Below, piece by piece: positions 11,711-59,282 of a stretch of DNA of 64,000 bases (its first letter is position 1; each line of letters starts with the position of its first letter). The notes beneath the pieces are model-generated. The model saw only the letters and a program-made list of their open reading frames with translations, was not told the origin of the DNA and made no database searches. The translations under genes and the position numbers were made by a program. This stretch comes from Stegostoma tigrinum (Eukaryota), in contig NC_081382.1 in NCBI RefSeq assembly GCF_030684315.1, forward strand, positions 19,512,592 through 19,576,591. The letters are read 5' to 3'.

Positions 11711-13661
11711 ATATTTCATTGTCTGTTACACACCGTAGAACATACTAAGGTTGTGAAAAAGCAATTCTTTTTCCCTTTCTGTTTAATAATTTAATAGCAT
11801 TTACAGCCTACAAGAATATAAGAGCTAGAAGCGGGAATAGAAAATTTAGCCCCTCAAGCCTCCTTGCCATTTAGTAAGATCTCAACCTGAACCCCTATTT
11901 CCTGCCCACTCTCCATCATCCTTTGTCCCATGACTAATTAAATATTCATCTATCTCCTTGTTACATTAACTCAATACCCCAGCATAGATTTACAGCACTT
12001 TTTGAAAAGTGTTTCTCCTCATCTGTTTTAAATCTGCTACCCATTATCCCAAATCATATTCTAGATTACCCCACAATGAGGATATGTCGATTGTGTGGAC
12101 CCCTTTAGCATCTTCTATACTTTAGATCTCCTTTTTCTTTTAAACTTGACTTCCAATAGTGCAATGCATGCAGAAGCATGGGAGCAGACATATCCACAAG
12201 TTGACAAAATGCTCTTGTAGCCTCTCCTCAGATAGCGGAGGCACCTTAAAAGATCCTACAGCTGTAAGTTAAAATGGTTTCACTTGCCACTGATGTAAGA
12301 CTGAGTGAGATTCAACACTAGCTGAATTTGAAAGTAGACTTTGGGAACCTTCTATTCTTATTCCCTTGAGTTGAGCATTACTTAGAGCAAGAAAGAACAT
12401 GCTGTACTGGGTAAACAAGGAGGAAGGGACAGTACCGTAGCAATTCTCATCACGTATTCTGGAGGTAATTCCTCCTATATGATATAAAAGAAGAGCTGAA
12501 CACAATAAATACATGAACAACACTCTTTAAAGTAAAACAGTGCAAAAAGATAGTTACAAATATAACAGTTGTGCACCCAAATTCAAAGTTCTAGCATTTT
12601 ACATTTAAACAAGTGAAGTTCAACTACATCTTATGAACCTTTAGGGGAAGCCAATTTTGGGCAGAAATATCCAGGGACCTGAGCGATGCAGGCTGTGTAT
12701 AGGTTTGTGCAGAATCGGACAACAAGTCAGCTGTGGCCAATCTCAATGATGGGAACATCTCACTCCACCTTTCATGCTTTTGACAAATGGTGAGGTGAGT
12801 TCCTCACCAGGCAGTGGCAAGTTGCTAATGAAGAGGGATTATTGTTTCTTAATGGATCAACTTGGCCCATTAATATTCAGCATTCTATGTCACCAAACTA
12901 GTCAGACATTGAGAAAGTTTGACATGAAAGGCGAGCACATACCTGGTGGATTCAGATTGTTACTTGCTCTATATGACTGCAGCATTGGACACTGGCCAAC
13001 ATCATCTCAGGTCATGCTCTGACTCATACACCCCATGTTCACAAACATTGGCATCTTACATTGCCCAGCCTCTAAGAATCCTCAAGGCACATCTTCAATC
13101 TACTTGATTGCAGATTCTATACCTCAATCCTGCACGTCAGGCTGTACTGGCAATTCTCATTGTAATGTTGCTGTGAGGATACTTTGGACTTGGGAACAAG
13201 GCTGTATTTGAGGATTCTTTGCTACCTCTTGTGGCATTCACTCACTCCGGGCCTAGCCGGATGTTCAGCACATCCCTACCTTGCACCACCTTGCCTTTTT
13301 GCACTTTGCCCTCTCATGCAGATGTTGCCTAGTCTCAACTTAGGCAAGTTACACAACTCCAACCAGAACGTTATGAATGAATTTGGCCAGGTATCCCAAA
13401 GTGTTAATGCCAAAGTGATCAAACCAGTGTGAACGCAAATCGGTACCAATGCAGCGCAGTCCAAGCTTTATTAGGAACAAAGTTACAATTACCATAAATA
13501 TGAAACATACTATCTCTAATTCTATTTGGCATATTAAGGTTACAATAGTTCCTAAATCTCTTGTAGTTTTAGGCAGTTGCTCTCTCTGGTTCTGTCCCTG
13601 AATCTGTGAAACTGTCTTCTTACTATCTATCTCTGGGGATGATCATCTGGTCTCTGTTTCT

Positions 13662-14461
13662 AGGCCCCAAGATGACTTTCCACATTAAGCAGAGGTTCAC
13701 CTGCACATCTGCCAATGTGGTATACTGCATCCACTGTACCTGGTGTGGCTTCCTCTACATTGGGGAAACCAAGCGGAGGCTTGGGGACCGCTTTGCAGAA
13801 CACCTCCGCTTGGTTCGCAATAAACAACTGCACCTCCCAGTCGCAAACCATTTTAACTCCCACTCCCATTCTTCCGATGACATGTCCATCATGGGCCTCC
13901 TGCAGTGCCACAAGGATGCTACCTGAAGGTTCCAGGAACAGCAACTCATATTCCGCTTGGGAACCCTGCAGCCCAATGGTATCAACGTGGACTTCACCAG
14001 CTTCAAAGTCTCCTCTTCCCCCACCGCATCCCAAAACAAGCCCAGTTCATCCCCTCCCCCCACTGCATCCCAAAACCAGCCCAGCCTGTCTCTGCCTCCC
14101 TAACATGTTCTTCCTCTCACCCATCCCTTCCTCCTACCTCAAGCCACACCTCCATTTCCTACCTACTAACCTCATCCCACCTCCTTGACCTGTCGGTCTA
14201 CCCTGGACTGACCTATCCCCTCCCTACCTCCCCACCTATACTGTCCTCTCCACCTATCTTCTTTTCTCTCCATCTTCGGTCCGCCTCCCCCTCTCTCCCT
14301 ATTTATTCCAGAACCTTCACCCCATCCCCCTCTCTGATGAAGGGTCTAGGCCCGAAACGTCAGCTTTTGTGCTCCTGAGATGCTGCTTGGCCTGCTGTAT
14401 TCATCCAGCTCTACACTTTGTTATCTTGGATTCTCCAGCATCTGCAGTTCCCATTATCTCT
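13662..14461 (+). mobile_element. 5'-truncated Penelope-like retroelement: GIY-YIG endonuclease C-terminus plus terminal repeat
   Basis: FTCTSANVVYCIHCTWCGFLYIGETKRRLGDRFAEHL...VANHFN. In-frame TGA at 13924 (likely CGA>TGA), then RFQEQQLIFRLGTLQPNGINVDF. Ends in CATCTGCAGTTCCCATTATCTCT. Confidence 0.92.
14332..14363 (+). ncRNA. Minimal type I hammerhead ribozyme motif in the PLE terminal repeat
   Basis: CTGATGA-A-GGGT(CTAG)GCCC-GAAAC-GTC^AG has both conserved core boxes, stem II and a GUC triplet. Minimal hammerheads are an established PLE feature. Confidence 0.75.
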
Positions 14462-26209: not shown

Positions 26210-26865
26210 CTCAGAAGATTGTAATTGCATTGGAGACAGTTTGGAAAAGATTCACCAGATTAACTCCAGAAGTCAGGCTTGTCATAGGAGGACAGATTGA
26301 GCAGTTTAGAACATGATGTGATCTAATTGAGGTACATAAGATGCTAAAGAGGATTGACAAAGTAGATATACAACAGATGTTTCTCCTTGGGACAGCAATC
26401 TAGAATGAGAAGTCATAGTTTTAGACTAAACAGCAACCACTTTAAAACAGATATGAGAAGGAAATACTTCTATCAAAACAGTGTGAATATATGGAATTCA
26501 CTGCCCCAGAGTGCAGCGGATGCTGGGACACTGAATAAAGTTGGAGGAGATAGATTTTTAATTAGTAATGGATTAAAGATCGATGGCAAATAGGCAGGAA
26601 AGTGAAGTCTCATCTGAGTTGGGGATAATGGGAACTGCAGATACTGGAGAATGTGAAATAGCAAAGTGTGAGGCTGAATGAAAACAGCAGGCCAAGCAGC
26701 ATCTTTGGAGCACAAAAGCATCTGATAAGATGCTGCTTAGCCTGCTGTGTTCAACCAGCTTCACACTTTTATCTCATCTGAGTTGGCATCAGTCATGAAT
26801 GTATTAAATAGCAGAACAGGCTTGAGAGACAGAATTGCCTCCCTCTCCTTTTAGTTCTCTTGCTC
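26210..26865 (+). mobile_element. CR1 LINE 3' fragment carrying a nested mini-PLE
   Basis: GQQSRMRSHSFRL...FKTDMRRKYFYQNSVNIWNSLPQSA. Confidence 0.85.
26623..26774. mobile_element. Palindromic mini-PLE with a 12-15-bp TSD
   Basis: Inverted arms around a short spacer; TCTCATCTGAGTTGG at 26608-26622 and 26772-26786. Confidence 0.88.
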
Positions 26866-33400: not shown

Positions 33401-33854
33401 TCAAATTGCAGCCTCTCTTCAATTTGCTTTTATAATGAATAGGCCAAAGCGGGCGTTGAAGTTTAAAATAGGTCTTCCCAAACCACAATCCCTCAGTGTG
33501 AGTGCCAGCTGGAATTTTGGGCTTGTTACCTTTAAAACAGGCTTGGCTGCTGTGGAGCTCCTGGGCAGTGGTAAAAGCTGAACTGCCCCTTTAAATGCTT
33601 GCCTGTGTTTTGAAATAGTAGGTATGCCTAACTGGCCAACCCTTGAGGCTTGATTGATGTCTTGCAAAACTCTGTGGAAAGTAAAGATGCTTCCGAAACA
33701 AAAATTGTGAATTAAACAGTTCTATCTCCCAGGTCTGCAAAAAGGAACTGCTGCTTTTCAGCCTTTTAAAATCATCCTTTATATCTGCCACTCTTTCTCA
33801 GATGGTTCAATGTGCAATGGCAATAATTCTGGTCTGAGAACTTTAAAACCCTGC

Positions 33855-34345
33855 TACAAAATCATGAGATGTACAGAAGGGGTTACTGTAAGGTGTTTTT
33901 TTCGCTAGGGTGGAGGATTTCAAGTCTAAGGGACACATTTTTAAGGTGAGAGAAGAGAGATTAAAAAAACCACGATAGGCATTTTTTTCACACATAGAAT
34001 GATTGGCTGCTGTGGAGCTCCTGGGCAGTGGTAAAAGCTGAACTGCCCCTTTAAATGCTTGCCTGTGTTTTGAAATAGTAGGTATGCCTTGGCCAGTTAG
34101 GCATACCTACTATTTCAAAACACAGGCAAGCATTTAAAGGGGCAGTTCAGCTTTTACCACTGCCCAGGAGCTCCACAGCAGCCAAGCCTGTTACAACATT
34201 TAAAAGACACTTGAATAAGTATATGAATAGGAAAGGTTTGGAGGGATATAGGCCAGGAGCAGGCAAGTGGGACTAGTTTAGGTTGGGATTATGTTTGGCA
34301 TGGACTGGTTGGACGGAAGGGTCTGTTTCTGTGCTGTATCACTCA
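33855..34345 (+). mobile_element. CR1 LINE 3' fragment interrupted by a templated hairpin insertion
   Basis: CR1 3' sequence (TTTAAGGTGAGAG...TTTTTCACACA | ACAACATTTAAAAGACA...GGGTCTGTTTCTGTGCTGTA) on both sides of 34003-34192. Confidence 0.85.
34003..34192. repeat. Perfect hairpin (87-bp stem, 9-nt loop) made of direct plus inverted copies of 33536-33639
   Basis: 34003-34089 equals 33543-33629; 34089-34192 equals the reverse complement of 33536-33639. Confidence 0.95.
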
Positions 34346-50905: not shown

Positions 50906-50987
50906 ATGGCGAGTCAGTCGCAGGGGATTCAGCAGCTGCTTCAGGCCGAGAAACGGGCGGCGGAGAAAGTGGCCGAAGCTCGGAAGC
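50906..50987 (+). CDS. ATP6V1G1: V-type proton ATPase subunit G1, exon 1
   Basis: MASQSQGIQQLLQAEKRAAEKVAEARK(R); 82 nt; donor C|GTGAGT. Confidence 0.97.
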
Positions 50988-51197
50988 GTGAGTGTCTGCC
51001 CTTTCCTGCAAACTACCTCAACATAAAGCTTGGGGAAGAGGAGCACGGAGGGTCTCCTTGTCGAAAAAAAAACACCGTGATTCCGTGACCTCGGGAGTCA
51101 GCTGTGGGGCGGCTTGGAGCTGAGGCCCAGCCACATCCCGGCGCTCTCACAGACTGCTACTCTGTCCTGCAGTCGCTAACCTGAGGGCGTTCCCGTT

Positions 51198-54100
51198 TGC
51201 TGTGTCACTCCCCCCCCCCCCCCGCTGTGTCACTCCCCCCCCCCCCCCGCTGTGTCACTCCCCCCCCCCCCGCTGTGTCACTCCTTCCCCCCCCCCGCTG
51301 TGTCACTCCCCCCCCCCGTGTCACTCCCCCCCCCCGTGTCACTCCCCCCCCCCCGTGTCACTCCCCCCCCCCGTGTCACTCCCCCCCCCCGTGTCACTCT
51401 CCCCCCCCCGTGTCACTCTCCCCCCCCCCGTGTCACTCTCCCCCCCCCCGTGTCACTCTCCCCCCCCCGTGTCACTCTCCCCCCCCCCGTGTCACTCTCC
51501 CCCCCCCCCGTGTCACTCTCCCCCCCCCCCGTGTCACTCTTCCCCCCCCCCGTGTCACTCTTCCCCCCCCCGTGTCACTCTTCCCCCCCCCCGTGTCACT
51601 CTCCCCCCCCCCGTGTCACTCTCCCCCCCCGTGTCACTCTCCCCCCCCGTGTCACACTCCCCCCCCCCCCGTGTCACTCCCCCCCCCCGTGTCACTCCCC
51701 CCCCCGTGTCACTCCCCCCCCCCGTGTCACTCCCCCCCCCCGTGTCACTCCCCCCCCCGTGTCACTCCCCCCCCCCGTGTCACTCCCCCCCCCGTGTCAC
51801 TCCCCCCCCCCGTGTCACTCCCCCCCCCGTGTCACTCCCCCCCCCGTGTCACTCCCCCCCCCGTGTCACTCCCCCCCCCCGTGTCACTCCCCCCCCCCCC
51901 CGTGTCATTCCCTCCCCCCCCCCCCCAACTGCACGGCCCCCTCCCCCCCGTGTCACCCCCTCCCCCCCCCAACTGCACGGCCCCCTCTCTGCTGTGTCAC
52001 CCCCTCCCCCCCCCAACTGCACGGCCCCCTCTCTGCTGTGTCAACCCCTCCCCCCCCCAACTGCACGGCCCCCTCTCTGCTGTGTCACCCCCTCCCCCCC
52101 CCAACTGCACGGCCCCCTCTCTGCTGTGTCACCCCCTCCCCCCCCCAACTGCACGGCCCCCTCTCTGCTGTGTCACCCCCTCCCCCCCCCCAACTGCACG
52201 GCCCCCTCTCTGCTGTGTCACCCCCTCCCCCCCCCAACTGCACGGCCCCCTCTCTGCTGTGTCACCCCCTCCCCCCCCCAACTGCACGGCCCCCTCTCTG
52301 CTGTGTCACCCCCTCCCCCCCCCCCCAACTGCACGGCCCCCTCTCTGCTGTGTCACCCCCTCCCCCCCCCCCCCCCAACTGCACGGCCCCCTCTCTGCTG
52401 TGTCACCCCCTCCCCCCCCAACTGCACGGCCCCCTCTCTGCTGTGTCACCCCCTCCCCCCCCCAACTGCACGGCCCCCTCTCTGCTGTGTCACCCCCTCC
52501 CCCCCCCCAACTGCACGGCCCCCTCTCTGCTGTGTCACCCCCTCCCCCCCCCCAACTGCACGGTCACCCCCTCCCCCCCCCAACTGCACGGCCCCCTCTC
52601 TGCTGTGTCACCCCCTCCCCCCCCCAACTGCACGCCCCCCTCTCTGCTGTGTCACCCCCTCCCCCCCCCAACTGCACGGCCCCCTCTCTGCTGTGTCACC
52701 CCCTCCCCCCCCCCCCCCCCCCCCAACTGCACGGCCCCCTCTCTGCTGTGTCACCCCCTCCCCCCCCCAACTGCACGGCCCCCTCTCTGCTGTGTCACCC
52801 CCTCCCCCCCCCAACTGCACGGCCCCCTCTCTGCTGTGTCACCCCCTCCCCCCCCCCAACTGCACGGCCCCCTCTCTGCTGTGTCACCCCCTCCCCCCCC
52901 CCAACTGCACGGCCCCCTCTCTGCTGTGTCACCCCCTCCCCCCCCCAACTGCACGGCCCCCTCTCTGCTGTGTCACCCCCTCCCCCCCCCCCCCCAACTG
53001 CACGGCCCCCTCTCTGCTGTGTCACCCCCTCCCCCCCCCAACTGCACGGCCCCCTCTCTGCTGTGTCACCCCCTCCCCCCCCCCAACTGCACGGCCCCCT
53101 CTCTGCTGTGTCACCCCCTCCCCCCCCCAACTGCACGGCCCCCTCTCTGCTGTGTCACCCCCTCCCCCCCAACTGCACGGCCCCCTCTCTGCTGTGTCAC
53201 CCCCTCTCCCCCCCCCCCCCCAACTGCACGGCCCCCTCTCTGCTGTGTCACCCCCTCCCCCCCCCCCCCCAAACTGCACGGCCCCCTCTCTGCTGTGTCA
53301 CCCCCTCCCCCCCCCCCCAAACTGCACGGCCCCCTCTCTGCTGTGTCACCCCCTCTCCCCCCCCCCCCCCAACTGCACGGCCCCCTCTCTGCTGTGTCAC
53401 CCCCTCCCCCCCCCCCCCAACTGCACGGCCCCCTCTCTGCTGTGTCACCCCCTCCCCCCCCCCAACTGCACGGCCCCCTCTCTGCTGTGTCACCCCCTCC
53501 CCCCCCCAACTGCACGGCCCCCTCTCTGCTGTGTCACCCCCTCCCCCCCCCAACTGCACGGCCCCCTCTCTGCTGTGTCACCCCCTCCCCCCCCCCCAAC
53601 TGCACGGCCCCCTCTCTGCTGTGTCACCCCCTCCCCCCCCCAACTGCACGGCCCCCTCTCTGCTGTGTCACCCCCTCCCCCCCAACTGCACGGCCCCCTC
53701 TCTGCTGTGTCACCCCCTCTCCCCCCCCCCCCCCAACTGCACGGCCCCCTCTCTGCTGTGTCACCCCCTCCCCCCCCCCCCCAACTGCACGGCCCCCTCT
53801 CTGCTGTGTCACCCCCTCCCCCCCCCAACTGCACGGCCCCCTCTCTGCTGTGTCACCCCCTCCCCCCCAACTGCACGGCCCCCTCTCTGCTGTGTCACCC
53901 CCTCCCCCCCAACTGCACGGCCCCCTCTCTGCTGTGTCACCCCCTCCCCCCCAACTGCACGGCCCCCTCTCTGCTGTGTCACCCCCTCCCCCCCCCCCCA
54001 ACTGCACGGCCCCCTCTCTGCTGTGTCACCCCCTCCCCCCCCCCAACTGCACGGCCCTCTCTCTGCTGTGTCACCCCCTCCCCCCCCAACTGCACGGCCC

Positions 54101-54210
54101 TCTCTCTGCTGTGTCACCCCCTCCCCACCCCAACTGCACGGCCCTCTCTCTGCTGTGTCACCCCCTCCCCCCCCCCCAACTGCACGGCCCCCTCTGCTGT
54201 GTCACCCCCC
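51198..54210. repeat. Two-domain C-rich minisatellite in ATP6V1G1 intron 1
   Basis: About 51198-51910: unit GTGTCACT(C)n (~18-22 nt). About 51927-54210: unit AACTGCACGGCCCCCTCTCTGCTGTGTCACCCCCT(C)n (~42-50 nt). Confidence 0.98.
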
Positions 54211-54441
54211 CAGCTGTGTCCACCCCCCGCCCCCCCGTTTCATACTTCCATCGTGCATCTCTGCTGCCTCTCAATAACCCCAGTTCACTCCCACTTGTTG
54301 TTTCCACCCATCCAATTCTACCATGCACTCCTGCTCCTGGTCCTCCCCCACCCCACCAGCTCTGCTCTCTTTCCTCTTCGCCACCTCATTCTTTGTTTTA
54401 CTTGGTTAAAAACTGATGGCCTGTATACACTCCAATTATAG

Positions 54442-54542
54442 GAAAGAATCGCAGATTGAAGCAAGCAAAAGAGGAAGCTCAAGCTGAGATTGAGCAATAT
54501 CGTCTACAGAGAGAAAAGGACTTTAAAGCGAAGGAAAATGCT
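54442..54542 (+). CDS. ATP6V1G1: V-type proton ATPase subunit G1, exon 2
   Basis: Acceptor TTATAG|; (R)KNRRLKQAKEEAQAEIEQYRLQREKDFKAKENA; 101 nt; donor GTATGT. Confidence 0.97.
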
Positions 54543-55631: not shown

Positions 55632-56078
55632 GGGATAACAAGGTGTAGAGCTGGATGAACACAGCAGGCCGAGCAGGAAGGCTGACGTTTTCGGCCTTGC
55701 CAGCCTTTATATTCAGAGGTTTAAAAATTTAGTCGTGGAATGATGTTACAGATATTGAAAGCACTGATCAGAACACTGAATACTGTGAGCAGTTCTGCAC
55801 ATTTCTTTAGAAATGAGAATACTAGCCTTAGAAGGAGTTTCCATGGGATTGCCAAGACAGAGGGGGAGAAAAAAAAACACATACTAGATTGTAATCCCTG
55901 GAGTTTAGAGGGCTAAGGAGTGATTGGATCAAAACTTAAGATATTGTACAAGAACAAAGAAATGTAGGGGATTACACTCAGCATGTCCCCTGCTCCTGTG
56001 ATGCTGCTTGGCCTGCTGTGTTCATCCAGCTCCACACCTCGTCTCAGATTCCACAGCATCTGCAGTTCCGACTACCTT
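55632..56078. mobile_element. Inverted PLE termini enclosing ~290 bp of CR1-derived sequence
   Basis: Minus arm 55632-55696, plus arm with tail 55989-56078; flanks TTTCCAGAGAA and TTTCCAGAAAA. Confidence 0.75.
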
Positions 56079-56604
56079 TTTCCAGAAAAAATCAGTTTTC
56101 TTTTGAGGAGGAGTTCCGAAGGTATGAACATCTGAGAGACAATGTCTGCTTATCTATTTTAAATGGCCATCTCCTGTTTTTTTTAATAAATAGTGACCCT
56201 TAGTTTTAGATTTCCTCACAAGAGAAATCGTTTTCTAGATCTATGCTGTTGAGACATCTCAATCTTTCATTTCAATCAAGTTGCTTCTTACTCTAAATTC
56301 CAGCAGATACAAACCTAACTTGTTCACTCCTTTACTCCTAATACAGCCTGTCAATTCCAATTATTAGTCTAGTAAAACTTCACTGAACTTCTTCCAATGT
56401 ATTTTCATCCTTTTAAATGAGGAAATCAATACTGAACAGAATACTGCTGAAGTCTCAACGATACCCTGTAAATCTGAAACGTAACCTCCCTACCTTTTGT
56501 ATTCAATTCTGCTTGCAATAAACAAGATACTACTTTTGGCTAGATAATAAAATGTGAGGCTGGATGAACACAGCAGGCCAAGCAGCATCTCAGGAGTACA
56601 AAAG

Positions 56605-56636
56605 CTGACGTTTCGGGCCTAGACCCTTCATCAGAG
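56605..56636 (-). ncRNA. Minimal hammerhead ribozyme motif, antisense copy
   Basis: Reverse complement of CTGATGAAGGGTCTAGGCCCGAAACGTCAG. Confidence 0.72.
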
Positions 56637-57372
56637 AGGGGGATGGGGGGAGGGAACTGGAATAAATAGGGAGAGAGGGGGAGGCGGACCGAAGATGGAG
56701 AGTAAAGAAGATAGGTGGAGAGGGTGTAGGTGGGGAGGTAGGGAGGGGATAGGTCAGTCCAGGGAAGACGGACAGGTCAAGGAGGTGGGATGAGGTTAGT
56801 AGGTAGCTGGGGGTGCGGCTTGGGGTGGGAGGAAGGGATGGGTGAGAGGAAGAACCGGTTAGGGAGGCAGAGACAGGTTGGACTGGTTTTGGGATGCAGT
56901 GGGTGGGGGGGAAGAGCTGGGCTGGTTGTGTGGTGCAGTGGGGGGAGGGGATGAACTGGGCTGGTTTAGGGATGCAGTAGGGGAAGGGGAGATTTTGAAA
57001 TTTTTGAGATTTTTCAAAATCTCCCCTTCCCCTACTGCATCCCTAAACCAGCCCAGTTCATCCCCTCCCCCCACTGCACCACACAACCAGCCCAGCTCTT
57101 CCCCCCCACCCACTGCATCCCAAAACCAGTCCAACCTGTCTCTGCCTCCCTAACCGGTTCTTCCTCTCACCCATCCCTTCCTCCCACCCCAAGCCGCACC
57201 CCCAGCTACCTACTAACCTCATCCCACCTTGACCTGTCCGTCTTCCCTGGACTGACCTATCCCCTCCCTACCTCCCCACCTACACCCTCTCCACCTATCT
57301 TCTTTACTCTCCATCATCGGTCCGCCTCCCCCTCTCTTCCTATTTATTCCAGTTCCCTCCCCCCATCCCCCT

Positions 57373-57404
57373 CTCTGATGAAGGGTCTAGGCCCGAAACG
57401 TCAG
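57373..57404 (+). ncRNA. Minimal hammerhead ribozyme motif, sense to ATP6V1G1
   Basis: CTGATGAAGGGTCTAGGCCCGAAACGTC^AG, identical to 14334-14363. Confidence 0.72.
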
Positions 57405-58315
57405 CTTTTGTACTCCTGAGATGCTGCTTGGCCTGCTGTGTTCATCCAGCCTCACATTTTATTATCTTGGAATCTCCAGCATCTGCAGTTCCCATTATCT
57501 CTGATACTACTTTTGGCTTTCCTGATTACTTTTGTTTTACTTTCGCTTGGCTCATTTAGGACCCATACATTCAGTCCTTCCACCAATGTCGTTCTTGAAA
57601 ATTGTAAAATGTTTGAGGTCTAGCACTGACCCCTCTGTCACATCACTTATTACACTTTGCTAACCAGAAAATAATCTGTTTATGTTCATGTTTTATTCCG
57701 TTAGCTGCTTCGTCTTTGGATACCCGTAACATCACTTCCATGCTTTAAATTTTTAACCTCTGAATATAAAGGCTAGCATTCCATTAGCCTTTAATTATTT
57801 TGTCTATTCATGACATTTTAAAATGATCAACCTTGTCCTCTTTGAGACCTCGCTGTAGTTTTTCCACAATTTAGCTAACCTTTTTGAACACCAATTTTGC
57901 TTGTACTGAAATACATTCGATATAGCTTTGTCCATTTATTTAAGCAATCAGTATCTCATTATGACTAATTAAATTTCTGCTTTGTTACTTGTTAAGTATC
58001 CTATTTGAAAGAGGCGGGACATTTATTTTTAAAGTTTTAGTAGTTTGATCTCATAGGGCAGGGGTGACAACCACTGTTCCTGGATCAGAAAAGAAATGTT
58101 AGGTTCTCGTCTCTCTCCTGATCTTGAGACAATCTCTCATTTGCTGGCAAATCAATTTTGAAATGGAATTTGATTTTTGGATATGTATTGGCTATGATCT
58201 TTGATAATCCATAAAATTTTCTGAAAGGAATGTGACTTTCCACTTCTGTGAAGAGTTCAATATGATTCTTGCTTATGGAATTGAAAATGCTTGATGTTTC
58301 TACATTCCTTTTCAG

Positions 58316-58489
58316 GCACTTGGTTCACATGGTGATTCTGCAACGGAAGTCGACAAAGACACCCAAGAGAAAATTAGGAACATTGGAGCAAGCTACGAAC
58401 AGAACAAGGAAGTTGTCTTGAATAATCTTCTTGGTTTAATCTGTGACATTAAACCAGAAATTCATGTAAACTTTCGCATTAATGGTTAG
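58316..58489 (+). CDS. ATP6V1G1: V-type proton ATPase subunit G1, exon 3 (terminal)
   Basis: Acceptor TTCCTTTTCAG|; ALGSHGDSATEVDKDTQEKIRNIGASYEQNKEVVLNNLLGLICDIKPEIHVNFRING*. Exons total 82+101+174=357 nt, i.e. 118 aa. Confidence 0.97.
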   Translation, partial: ALGSHGDSATEVDKDTQEKIRNIGASYEQNKEVVLNNLLGLICDIKPEIHVNFRING

Positions 58490-58514
58490 AACTGCAATGT
58501 AGTTTTGCCTTAGC

Positions 58515-59282
58515 AATAAAAATGATCATTGGAATAGCAACATTTTGTATTTACCATGATTATGCAAACTTATTTGTGCAGCACTTGTACTTCTCAATAA
58601 AATCTGCATCAGATGAATTTGGAAAAAGGGTAGTTTGAGTTTCTAATGTAAAATGTTCTTATTAATGTTGAATGTGAGTATTCCTTGTTTCTGTTAGATT
58701 TTCAGTCAAAACTGAAGGTGCTACAACTGTCATGAGTTCCTATTCACACAAAAAGGCAAGGTTATACCTTTAATAAACAAATGATAATTTTATGGAGGGT
58801 ATACAGGAGAACAATAACCTATAATTGTGTGCACTTGAAGTTTTTGAATCTAGAGAAGAATATGCTGGACATTTTTCTGAATTAAAAGCAATGAATTTAT
58901 TATTGCTTTGTCAATTGGTTCTAATATGGTGGACCAAATTACAACTGAGTGAAATTGTCTTCTGCAATTGAGTCATTTAATGGCCCAAAAATACTATAAA
59001 ATGTTCTTATTGGAGTAGTGTCTCTGTCATTTTAAAAATACGAGCTTGCCTTTAATGACTTTCCCTCCTGAATCAAAGCTGTTTAATTGTTCAAATGTCT
59101 TCTAGATTGTATTGAAATGTTTGATTTAGTTTATGCAGAATGATGTTACAGTACAGCAGTTTGGATCAGTTCTTAAAATTCTGTTTGAAATGCCTCCTTA
59201 TTGTATGCTGTTTGCTACTTTTATCTGTAAACCTTTGTGTTCAAGTAATTTATCTCTCTCCAAATAAATCTCTAGCAATAAA
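58515..59282 (+). terminator. Candidate polyadenylation signals of ATP6V1G1
   Basis: AATAAA at 58515, 58596, 58772, 59263 and 59277; which is used cannot be determined from sequence. Confidence 0.5.

Follow-up and report, generated by a model that had tools for sequence, protein, structure and literature searches.

The typical insertion of a Penelope-like element (PLE) has an inverted, 5′-truncated copy beside its 5′ end and a tail of 30–40 bp at one end only (PMC8557442). Rotifer examples show inverted pLTRs and target-site duplications (TSDs) of 8–10 bp, together with a tail of 31 bp and palindromic sequence where the junction lies (PMC3846280). How the inverted copies and the one-sided tails are made was described as an open question (PMC8557442). 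In Anolis, the protein of the Poseidon element PAc cuts and extends both target strands, reverse transcription starts at two sites bracketing the tail, and start sites do not differ between the top strand and the bottom strand in vitro (PMC11167929). The available text of that study combines the two start sites with extension on both strands, and no account of inverted copies was noted in it. Opposed minimal hammerheads 100–700 bp apart were reported in Schistosoma mansoni in 2014 (PMC4209133), and the introns of the whale shark contain PLEs in abundance (10.1101/443036).

The insertion described here lies in Stegostoma tigrinum, in a stretch of 64,000 nucleotides that was analysed as a whole and is called the window (positions count from its first letter). 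It is an insert of 977 bases, made of a near-perfect inverted pair, within the second intron of a V-ATPase G gene. The features of the locus, and the family copy used to identify the element, are the following.

13660..14461, + strand: single-armed family copy with GIY-YIG end (GIY-YIG E 0.0015, below the curated cut-off)
50906..50987, + strand: coding part of exon 1 of V-ATPase subunit G, likely G1 (joined-exon translation)
54442..54542, + strand: host exon 2 (Pfam V-ATPase_G, E 1.5e-09; AG/GT ends)
56526..56541, + strand: left copy of the TSD (16/16 identity to 57503–57518)
56542..57000, − strand: inverted tail-less arm, with the last PLE codons, the pLTR and the 3′ region; it stops at the inner 3′ boundary, the equivalent of 57467 (alignment to the right arm; homology to the 13660–14461 copy)
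56607..56634, − strand: hammerhead core, antisense in the host pre-mRNA (motif scan; pairs with 57375–57402)
57001..57011, no strand: spacer, 11 nt (family contigs; snap-back stem)
57012..57467, + strand: sense arm, PLE 3′ end (alignment)
57375..57402, + strand: minimal type I hammerhead (motif and fold; features as in PMC4209133)
57468..57502, + strand: PLE tail, 35 nt, on this arm only (alignment; tail as defined in PMC8557442 and PMC11167929)
57503..57518, + strand: right copy of the TSD (repeat match; intact contig in runs X1 and X2)
58316..58489, + strand: coding part of host exon 3 (Pfam V-ATPase_G; PDB subunit G, E 2.5e-18; X5 contig from exactly 58316)

Joined, the three exons translate into a V-ATPase G subunit of 118 amino acids, to which G1 is the closest of the named solved chains (E 1.4e-16, against 7.5e-11 for G2). 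The host is a V-ATPase G gene, likely that of G1; the original prediction had named ATP6V1G1, presumed to be essential. A harmonin-N-like exon at 515–1066 on the − strand fits the whirlin–G1 neighbourhood of human. Within intron 2, the insertion is separated from the 5′ splice site by 1983 nt and from the 3′ one by 797 nt, and A+T around the site amounts to 68%. Two AATAAA hexamers in host sense (56546 and 56661) are contributed by the inverted arm, with three others in the remaining 2796 nt of the intron; an effect of the arm's hexamers on the host gene is possible. Most of intron 1 is occupied by ∼3 kb of C-rich tandem repeats (∼51100–54240, with 43–46-nt units at the 3′ end), and G runs are frequent on the complementary strand.

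The near-perfect hairpin of ∼455 bp, the 11-nt spacer and the perfect 16-bp TSD that had been predicted are all present. The left and right arms, 459 and 456 nt long, are separated by two substitutions and one 3-nt gap, and their longest exact inverted match is 218 nt, compared with 15–22 nt in 20/20 shuffled windows. The duplicated 16-mer is not extendable and has only these two occurrences in the window, both strands included. Both arms terminate at 57012, where the PLE reading frame is in its final codons, and both have a variant at 57412 that is absent from three other window copies. The 35-nt tail, present on the right arm only, was absent from the description given in the original prediction. 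With the 14-kb copy as comparator, all three arm differences fall on the tail-bearing sense arm (3/3; chance 0.25, not significant). Before 57012, family contigs run into reading-frame sequence (at least 62 in X1 and at least 65 in X2), and thus the spacer is not native element sequence. It is associated with a 7-bp snap-back stem (−4.2 kcal/mol) and with a 6-nt match to the arm end (chance 0.03), and was likely self-templated from that end by snap-back synthesis.

In general, these traits are those of Penelope and Poseidon insertions, with which the shark locus shares the inverted 5′-truncated copy, the one-end tail, the short TSD, the junction palindrome, the pLTR hammerhead and, at the level of the family, an RT followed by a C-terminal GIY-YIG (PMC8557442, PMC3846280). 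It differs from them by its equal arms (456–459 nt), with no reading frame between, so that the whole insert is a near-perfect hairpin, and its TSD is 16 bp long instead of the 8–10 bp of rotifers (PMC3846280). With Anolis PAc it shares two fixed 3′ boundaries bracketing the tail, an AT-rich target and the pLTR hammerhead (PMC11167929). A relatively young fold-back PLE insertion, as originally proposed, is retained, but not as anything special, since the architecture is canonical for PLEs (PMC8557442, PMC3846280). As an inverted PLE insertion the locus is standard and well preserved, and the two-armed form is routine for the family (five of nine window loci). In the twin priming of LINE-1, both target nicks prime on the element RNA, leading to a 5′ inversion within the TSD, and the inverted and direct parts do not overlap. 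The shark arms, in contrast, duplicate the same 456 nt, which makes a palindrome.

The arms match the single-armed copy at 13660–14461, which keeps the GIY-YIG end, has one in-frame stop and encodes a piece 89–90% identical to whale shark and zebra shark proteins. A shark relative at 90% identity (P0001) has an RVT_1 match at 1–121 (E 9e-05, under the cut-off) and a GIY-YIG domain at 355–432 (above the cut-off). Thus, the element is an endonuclease-bearing PLE: RT then C-terminal GIY-YIG is found in the family, the insertion itself having the last codons only, and the inverted 5′-truncated neighbour copy, the one-ended tail in the 30–40-nt range (35 nt) and the short TSD are found at the locus. 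A predicted zebra shark protein, P0002, reads through the element 3′ region (window 56593–57416) with 88–90% identity, which indicates that a close subfamily is present in zebra shark. Two other classes were rejected, namely a MITE or fold-back DNA transposon, which would have symmetric terminal inverted repeats up to both TSDs and no retroelement origin, as the tail here leaves an overhang on the right and the sequence comes from the 3′ end of a PLE, and a non-LTR retrozyme, as the units are head to head where two or more head-to-tail units, each with a hammerhead, define the class (10.64898/2026.07.22.740005). A ribozyme pattern scan of viral and metagenome contigs gave no match, and an endonuclease query gave 25 distant loci (42–78% over the best segment). 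One metagenome contig with a distant GIY-YIG relative (L001) has 78-nt inverted repeats, 96% alike, at 35–112 and 1128–1205.

The nine family loci comprise the five two-armed copies (20.2, 26.6, 43.3, 55.6 and 56.5 kb) and four single-armed ones (9.1, 14.0, 36.7 and 38.0 kb). In all five two-armed copies the tail is on one arm only (chance at most 0.03; n = 5 copies). Their sense arms end at 57499–57502 in reference coordinates, and the outer ends of the inverted arms align to 57467, 57467 and 57466, with 57450 and 57474–57489 for two decayed copies. Within each pair of arms, the inner ends are offset by 0, 13, 15, 21 and 24 nt. The boundary at 57467 and that at the tail end share a 7-letter end motif, ATTATCT. 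Arm identity is 99% for the 56.5-kb insertion and 84–92% for the four short two-armed copies, of which the one at 20 kb reverses direction within the helix II palindrome of the ribozyme. Both copies in the V-ATPase G intron are two-armed, versus 3/7 elsewhere (Fisher p 0.44, not significant). The older of these two (55634–56077) has the same orientation, 39-nt arms, an 8-bp TSD and ∼300 nt of filler, including a dispersed-repeat piece with an 81% inverted match to 57714–57778; capture of the filler from there was dropped, as 57714–57778 is itself another dispersed repeat with a depth 10–30× that of the flank. The copies at 26719 and 36651 start 1–2 nt past the predicted ribozyme cut site (57404 and 57405 in reference coordinates), and these starts hint that cleaved RNA may sometimes serve as template.

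Contigs of 4 of the 23 listed sequencing runs were mapped to 56968–58800, a stretch that includes one arm; three raw-read runs, of bisulfite DNA, were set aside. X1 and X2 come from one study, possibly the window's own source although both differ from it at 57918, and contig depth was not taken as copy number. In X1, at least 225,579 contigs fall on the mapped stretch, family-wide. Their loose ends pile up at 57374 (at least 612), 57467 (at least 623) and 57507 (at least 443). The piles at 57467 and 57507 indicate two fixed 3′ boundaries of the family, and that at 57374 a major 5′ boundary at the ribozyme. At the locus itself, X1 and X2 each provide one contig covering 57485–57794 with no differences (depth 20.7 for a flank of 18.2, and 12.3 for 12.1). 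This contig has 34 letters to the left of the TSD–flank boundary and 18 to the left of the tail–TSD boundary, and formally bridges the first only; it is unbroken at the TSD, where a break would be expected if the run also contained an empty allele. Among the contigs listed, none spans the hairpin centre, and the centre and left junction rest on the assembly. Organism B is a relative whose flank shows 66 differences over 1034 nt; one of its contigs, 949 nt long, matches from exactly 57503 and is preceded by 468 other letters, which makes an empty site likely. The X5 contig that begins to match at the exon 3 acceptor has 208 other letters before it; they fit exons 1 and 2 plus a 25-nt leader, so that X5 would be RNA. 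No contig of X5 covers 57526–58269. Substitution spectra, pooled over the whole family and hence no guide to editing, are A>G 5 and T>C 8 in X5, and A>G 7 and T>C 13 in X1. Position 57918 is T in X1, X2 and organism B versus C in the window, from another haplotype or an assembly error.

An intact hammerhead motif had been predicted on each strand. A motif scan places the cores at 57375–57402 (+) and 56634–56607 (−), and the + motif contains CUGAUGA, an extra A, a 4-bp helix II, GAAA and an ACGU palindrome replacing helix III, with a predicted cut after 57402. It has what minimal dimer-type type I hammerheads require, i.e. the catalytic boxes, helix II, an extra nucleotide after position 9, a palindromic helix III remnant and an NUH site. 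The stable helices I and III of a hammerhead active as a monomer are missing, helix I being made of two contiguous pairs and helix III being unable to close within one copy. In the isolated motif, the core is predicted to pair with the cut-site side (−11.4 kcal/mol versus −3.6 for the active-like fold), and in 4/4 longer contexts the predicted pairing probability of helix I is ∼0. The second motif cannot act as a dimer partner since it is on the other strand. Collectively, the catalytic letters and helix II of the predicted hammerheads hold, the fold does not, and only the + motif is a ribozyme in the pre-mRNA. No Rfam hammerhead match was found in the window at the gathering score, nor at E up to 10 (0/70); the 70 matches at this level, all below gathering scores, are mostly miRNA hairpin models attracted by any long stem. 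With metazoan minimal hammerheads the motif shares the core boxes, the extra nucleotide before helix II, the G–C closing pair, the palindromic helix III remnant and, as in D. virilis, a helix I of 2 bp, but its helix II has 4 bp versus 6–8 bp (PMC4209133). The opposed cores are ∼740 nt apart and enclosed by perfectly complementary arms, against 100–700 bp in S. mansoni (PMC4209133).

These folds predict a ribozyme without activity when alone. Lone minimal hammerheads gave no detectable cleavage in vitro (PMC4209133), and one of nine Xenopus dimers cleaved (10.64898/2026.07.22.740005). In Anolis, the PLE protein can assist or switch on cleavage of its ribozyme, and the RNA data have no reads ending at the cut site (PMC11167929). 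The antisense arm, transcribed first, pairs with 28/28 core bases of the ribozyme in the predicted duplex, in line with the proposal that it would bind the sense ribozyme. The further idea that the insertion neutralizes its own cleavage loses much of its force, as the monomer is predicted to adopt an inactive fold even without the antisense arm and lone minimal motifs remained uncleaved (PMC4209133). Little cleavage is probably left to neutralize, barring assistance by the PLE protein.

The long dsRNA expected in the pre-mRNA from the outset is supported by the predicted fold, in which the arms form a long duplex. Intronic RNA stays in the nucleus, apart from MDA5 and largely from Dicer, and flies possess a dedicated siRNA pathway. 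Rearranged Penelope copies in Drosophila are likewise inverted and able to form dsRNA; siRNAs match these inverted regions, and their silencing was judged inefficient (PMC3681739). Lizard Penelope has more than 40,000 edited sites, and palindromic Harbinger repeats of frog are hyper-edited (PMC5625713); the shark hairpin has in common with them a self-folding repeat in pre-mRNA expected to attract ADAR. By analogy, A-to-I editing of this hairpin is likely, and so is its status as a tolerated by-product at the RNA level.

Two substitutions in 912 arm sites correspond to ∼3 million generations (0.4–11 million) at the published shark rate of 7e-10 (PMC10587355), on the assumption that they post-date insertion; RT or assembly errors would make the insertion younger and gene conversion older. 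Arm divergence is ∼7% of the per-lineage distance to organism B. Replication forks stall at inverted Alus with a 12-bp spacer (PMC7999016), and by comparison a risk of instability is plausible for the shark palindrome. A fold-back outside the PLE family occurs at 33536–33639 and 34003–34192, with 87-nt arms and a 9-nt spacer, inside another dispersed repeat; it is 100% identical to a stretch 450 nt upstream, has no evident TSD and may have arisen either by templated inverted duplication very recently or as an artefact of the assembly.

On balance, we consider it somewhat probable that the locus is a 5′-truncated PLE end, made as a head-to-head pair by priming from two nicks, with an RNA hairpin that is tolerated and a ribozyme that is inactive alone. 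The element's endonuclease would have cut both strands 16 nt apart. By extension from PMC11167929, cDNA synthesis would have begun at the outer site (57502) from the bottom-strand end and at the inner site (57467, 35 nt upstream) from the top-strand end. The arms would have been copied from one RNA, or one arm completed on the other; a single template is suggested by the shared stop at 57012 and the shared variant at 57412. Brief snap-back synthesis may then have written the 11-nt spacer before the ends were joined. On host transcription the arms are predicted to close into a duplex of 456 bp, ∼800 nt away from the 3′ splice site, which likely undergoes A-to-I editing and leaves with the intron. 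A search of the open-access literature, with subscription papers outside its scope, found no statement of dual priming for PLE inversions.

A competing origin, which we hold to be possible but rather unlikely, is that a single-primed cDNA (or an antisense RNA) folded at a short palindrome, copied itself and was joined to the upstream target. The common end of both arms at 57012, the 7-bp snap-back stem at the junction, the small offsets of inner ends in the five two-armed copies (0–24 nt) and the turn of the 20-kb copy within the helix II palindrome all speak for such an event, and self-priming is how palindromic junctions of this sort have been interpreted in print (PMC3846280). Plain fold-back gives, however, no reason why the inverted arm should stop at 57466–57467 across independent insertions and hundreds of family contigs, a fixed outer end that dual priming explains; the arm differences, moreover, are all on the tail-bearing arm and not on the would-be second copy (chance 0.25, weak). 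Against dual priming, the start site does not differ between strands in PMC11167929, which therefore does not by itself account for a tail on one arm only. That the hairpin is an artefact, of the assembly or of a folded-back read, with a simpler insertion behind it is very improbable. Such an artefact would fit the absence of a centre-spanning contig among those listed, the position of the left junction outside the mapped stretch and one-arm differences that could be read errors (three in all), but a folded-back read would not re-enter the unique right flank, and the structure comes with a TSD, a non-native spacer and the tail asymmetry, the last of which recurs in four older copies.

The fate of such hairpins admits other readings. 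Collapse of the palindrome had been proposed as the source of short palindromes elsewhere in the window, in which case long two-armed insertions would lose their centres and the present one might itself be a remnant. This is highly unlikely, despite the replication stalling at inverted Alus with a 12-bp spacer (PMC7999016) and the greater decay of all four short two-armed copies (84–92% versus 99%). Two young copies with a single arm, at 36.7 kb (99% like the present insertion, start at 57405) and 38.0 kb (96%, start at 57393), both with intact TSDs, are equally short, truncation at the ribozyme, seen as the 5′ boundary at 57374 in at least 612 X1 contigs, explains their size, the 34-kb palindrome is not PLE sequence, and the hairpin lasted ∼3 million generations (0.4–11 million) if its two substitutions post-date insertion. 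Collapse is thus unneeded. Only a little less improbable is a role in which the antisense arm shields the host from the ribozyme and the hairpin feeds family-silencing small RNAs. Coverage of 28/28 core bases by the first-transcribed arm, the excess of two-armed copies in this intron (2/2 versus 3/7; Fisher p 0.44), activation of the ribozyme by PLE protein (PMC11167929) and fly siRNAs matching inverted Penelope copies (PMC3681739) point that way. Against it, the active monomer fold is not predicted and lone minimal hammerheads stay uncleaved (PMC4209133), Anolis RNA reads lack ends at the cut site (PMC11167929), the fly siRNAs are inefficient (PMC3681739), and one locus is unlikely to matter among at least 225,579 family contigs in X1. 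A broader synthesis, in which two-site dual priming plants hairpins genome-wide, the two-armed form is favoured in introns since its antisense arm masks protein-assisted cleavage, and these hairpins are a main source of edited dsRNA and silencing RNAs in sharks, is improbable as a whole.

Taken as a single locus, the insertion is of minor importance: it is one clean case of a PLE structure already on record from flies, rotifers and other animals, and the literature likewise contains hammerheads in opposed pairs, siRNAs derived from inverted copies of Penelope, and Penelope RNA that is heavily edited. The shark family, with its many copies, two sharp 3′ boundaries and one-arm tail rule, would permit a genome-wide test of dual priming versus fold-back. 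The 456-bp palindrome with its 11-nt spacer, possibly maintained for 10^5–10^7 generations, offers a natural case of stability in a slow-mutating vertebrate.

Family contigs also contain unusual joints. Between 57465–57470 and 57499–57507, dozens of contigs per junction type connect a tail-less end to an opposite-strand tail end, as could arise if two-armed units lie in arrays or if the element inserts into its own end. Other joints (57499–57375 and 57507–57373) correspond to head-to-tail repeats of a 125–135-nt ribozyme-to-tail unit and are accompanied by loose ends before 57374; they likely represent a subfamily of short elements, non-autonomous and retrozyme-like, whose dimers could undergo cleavage.
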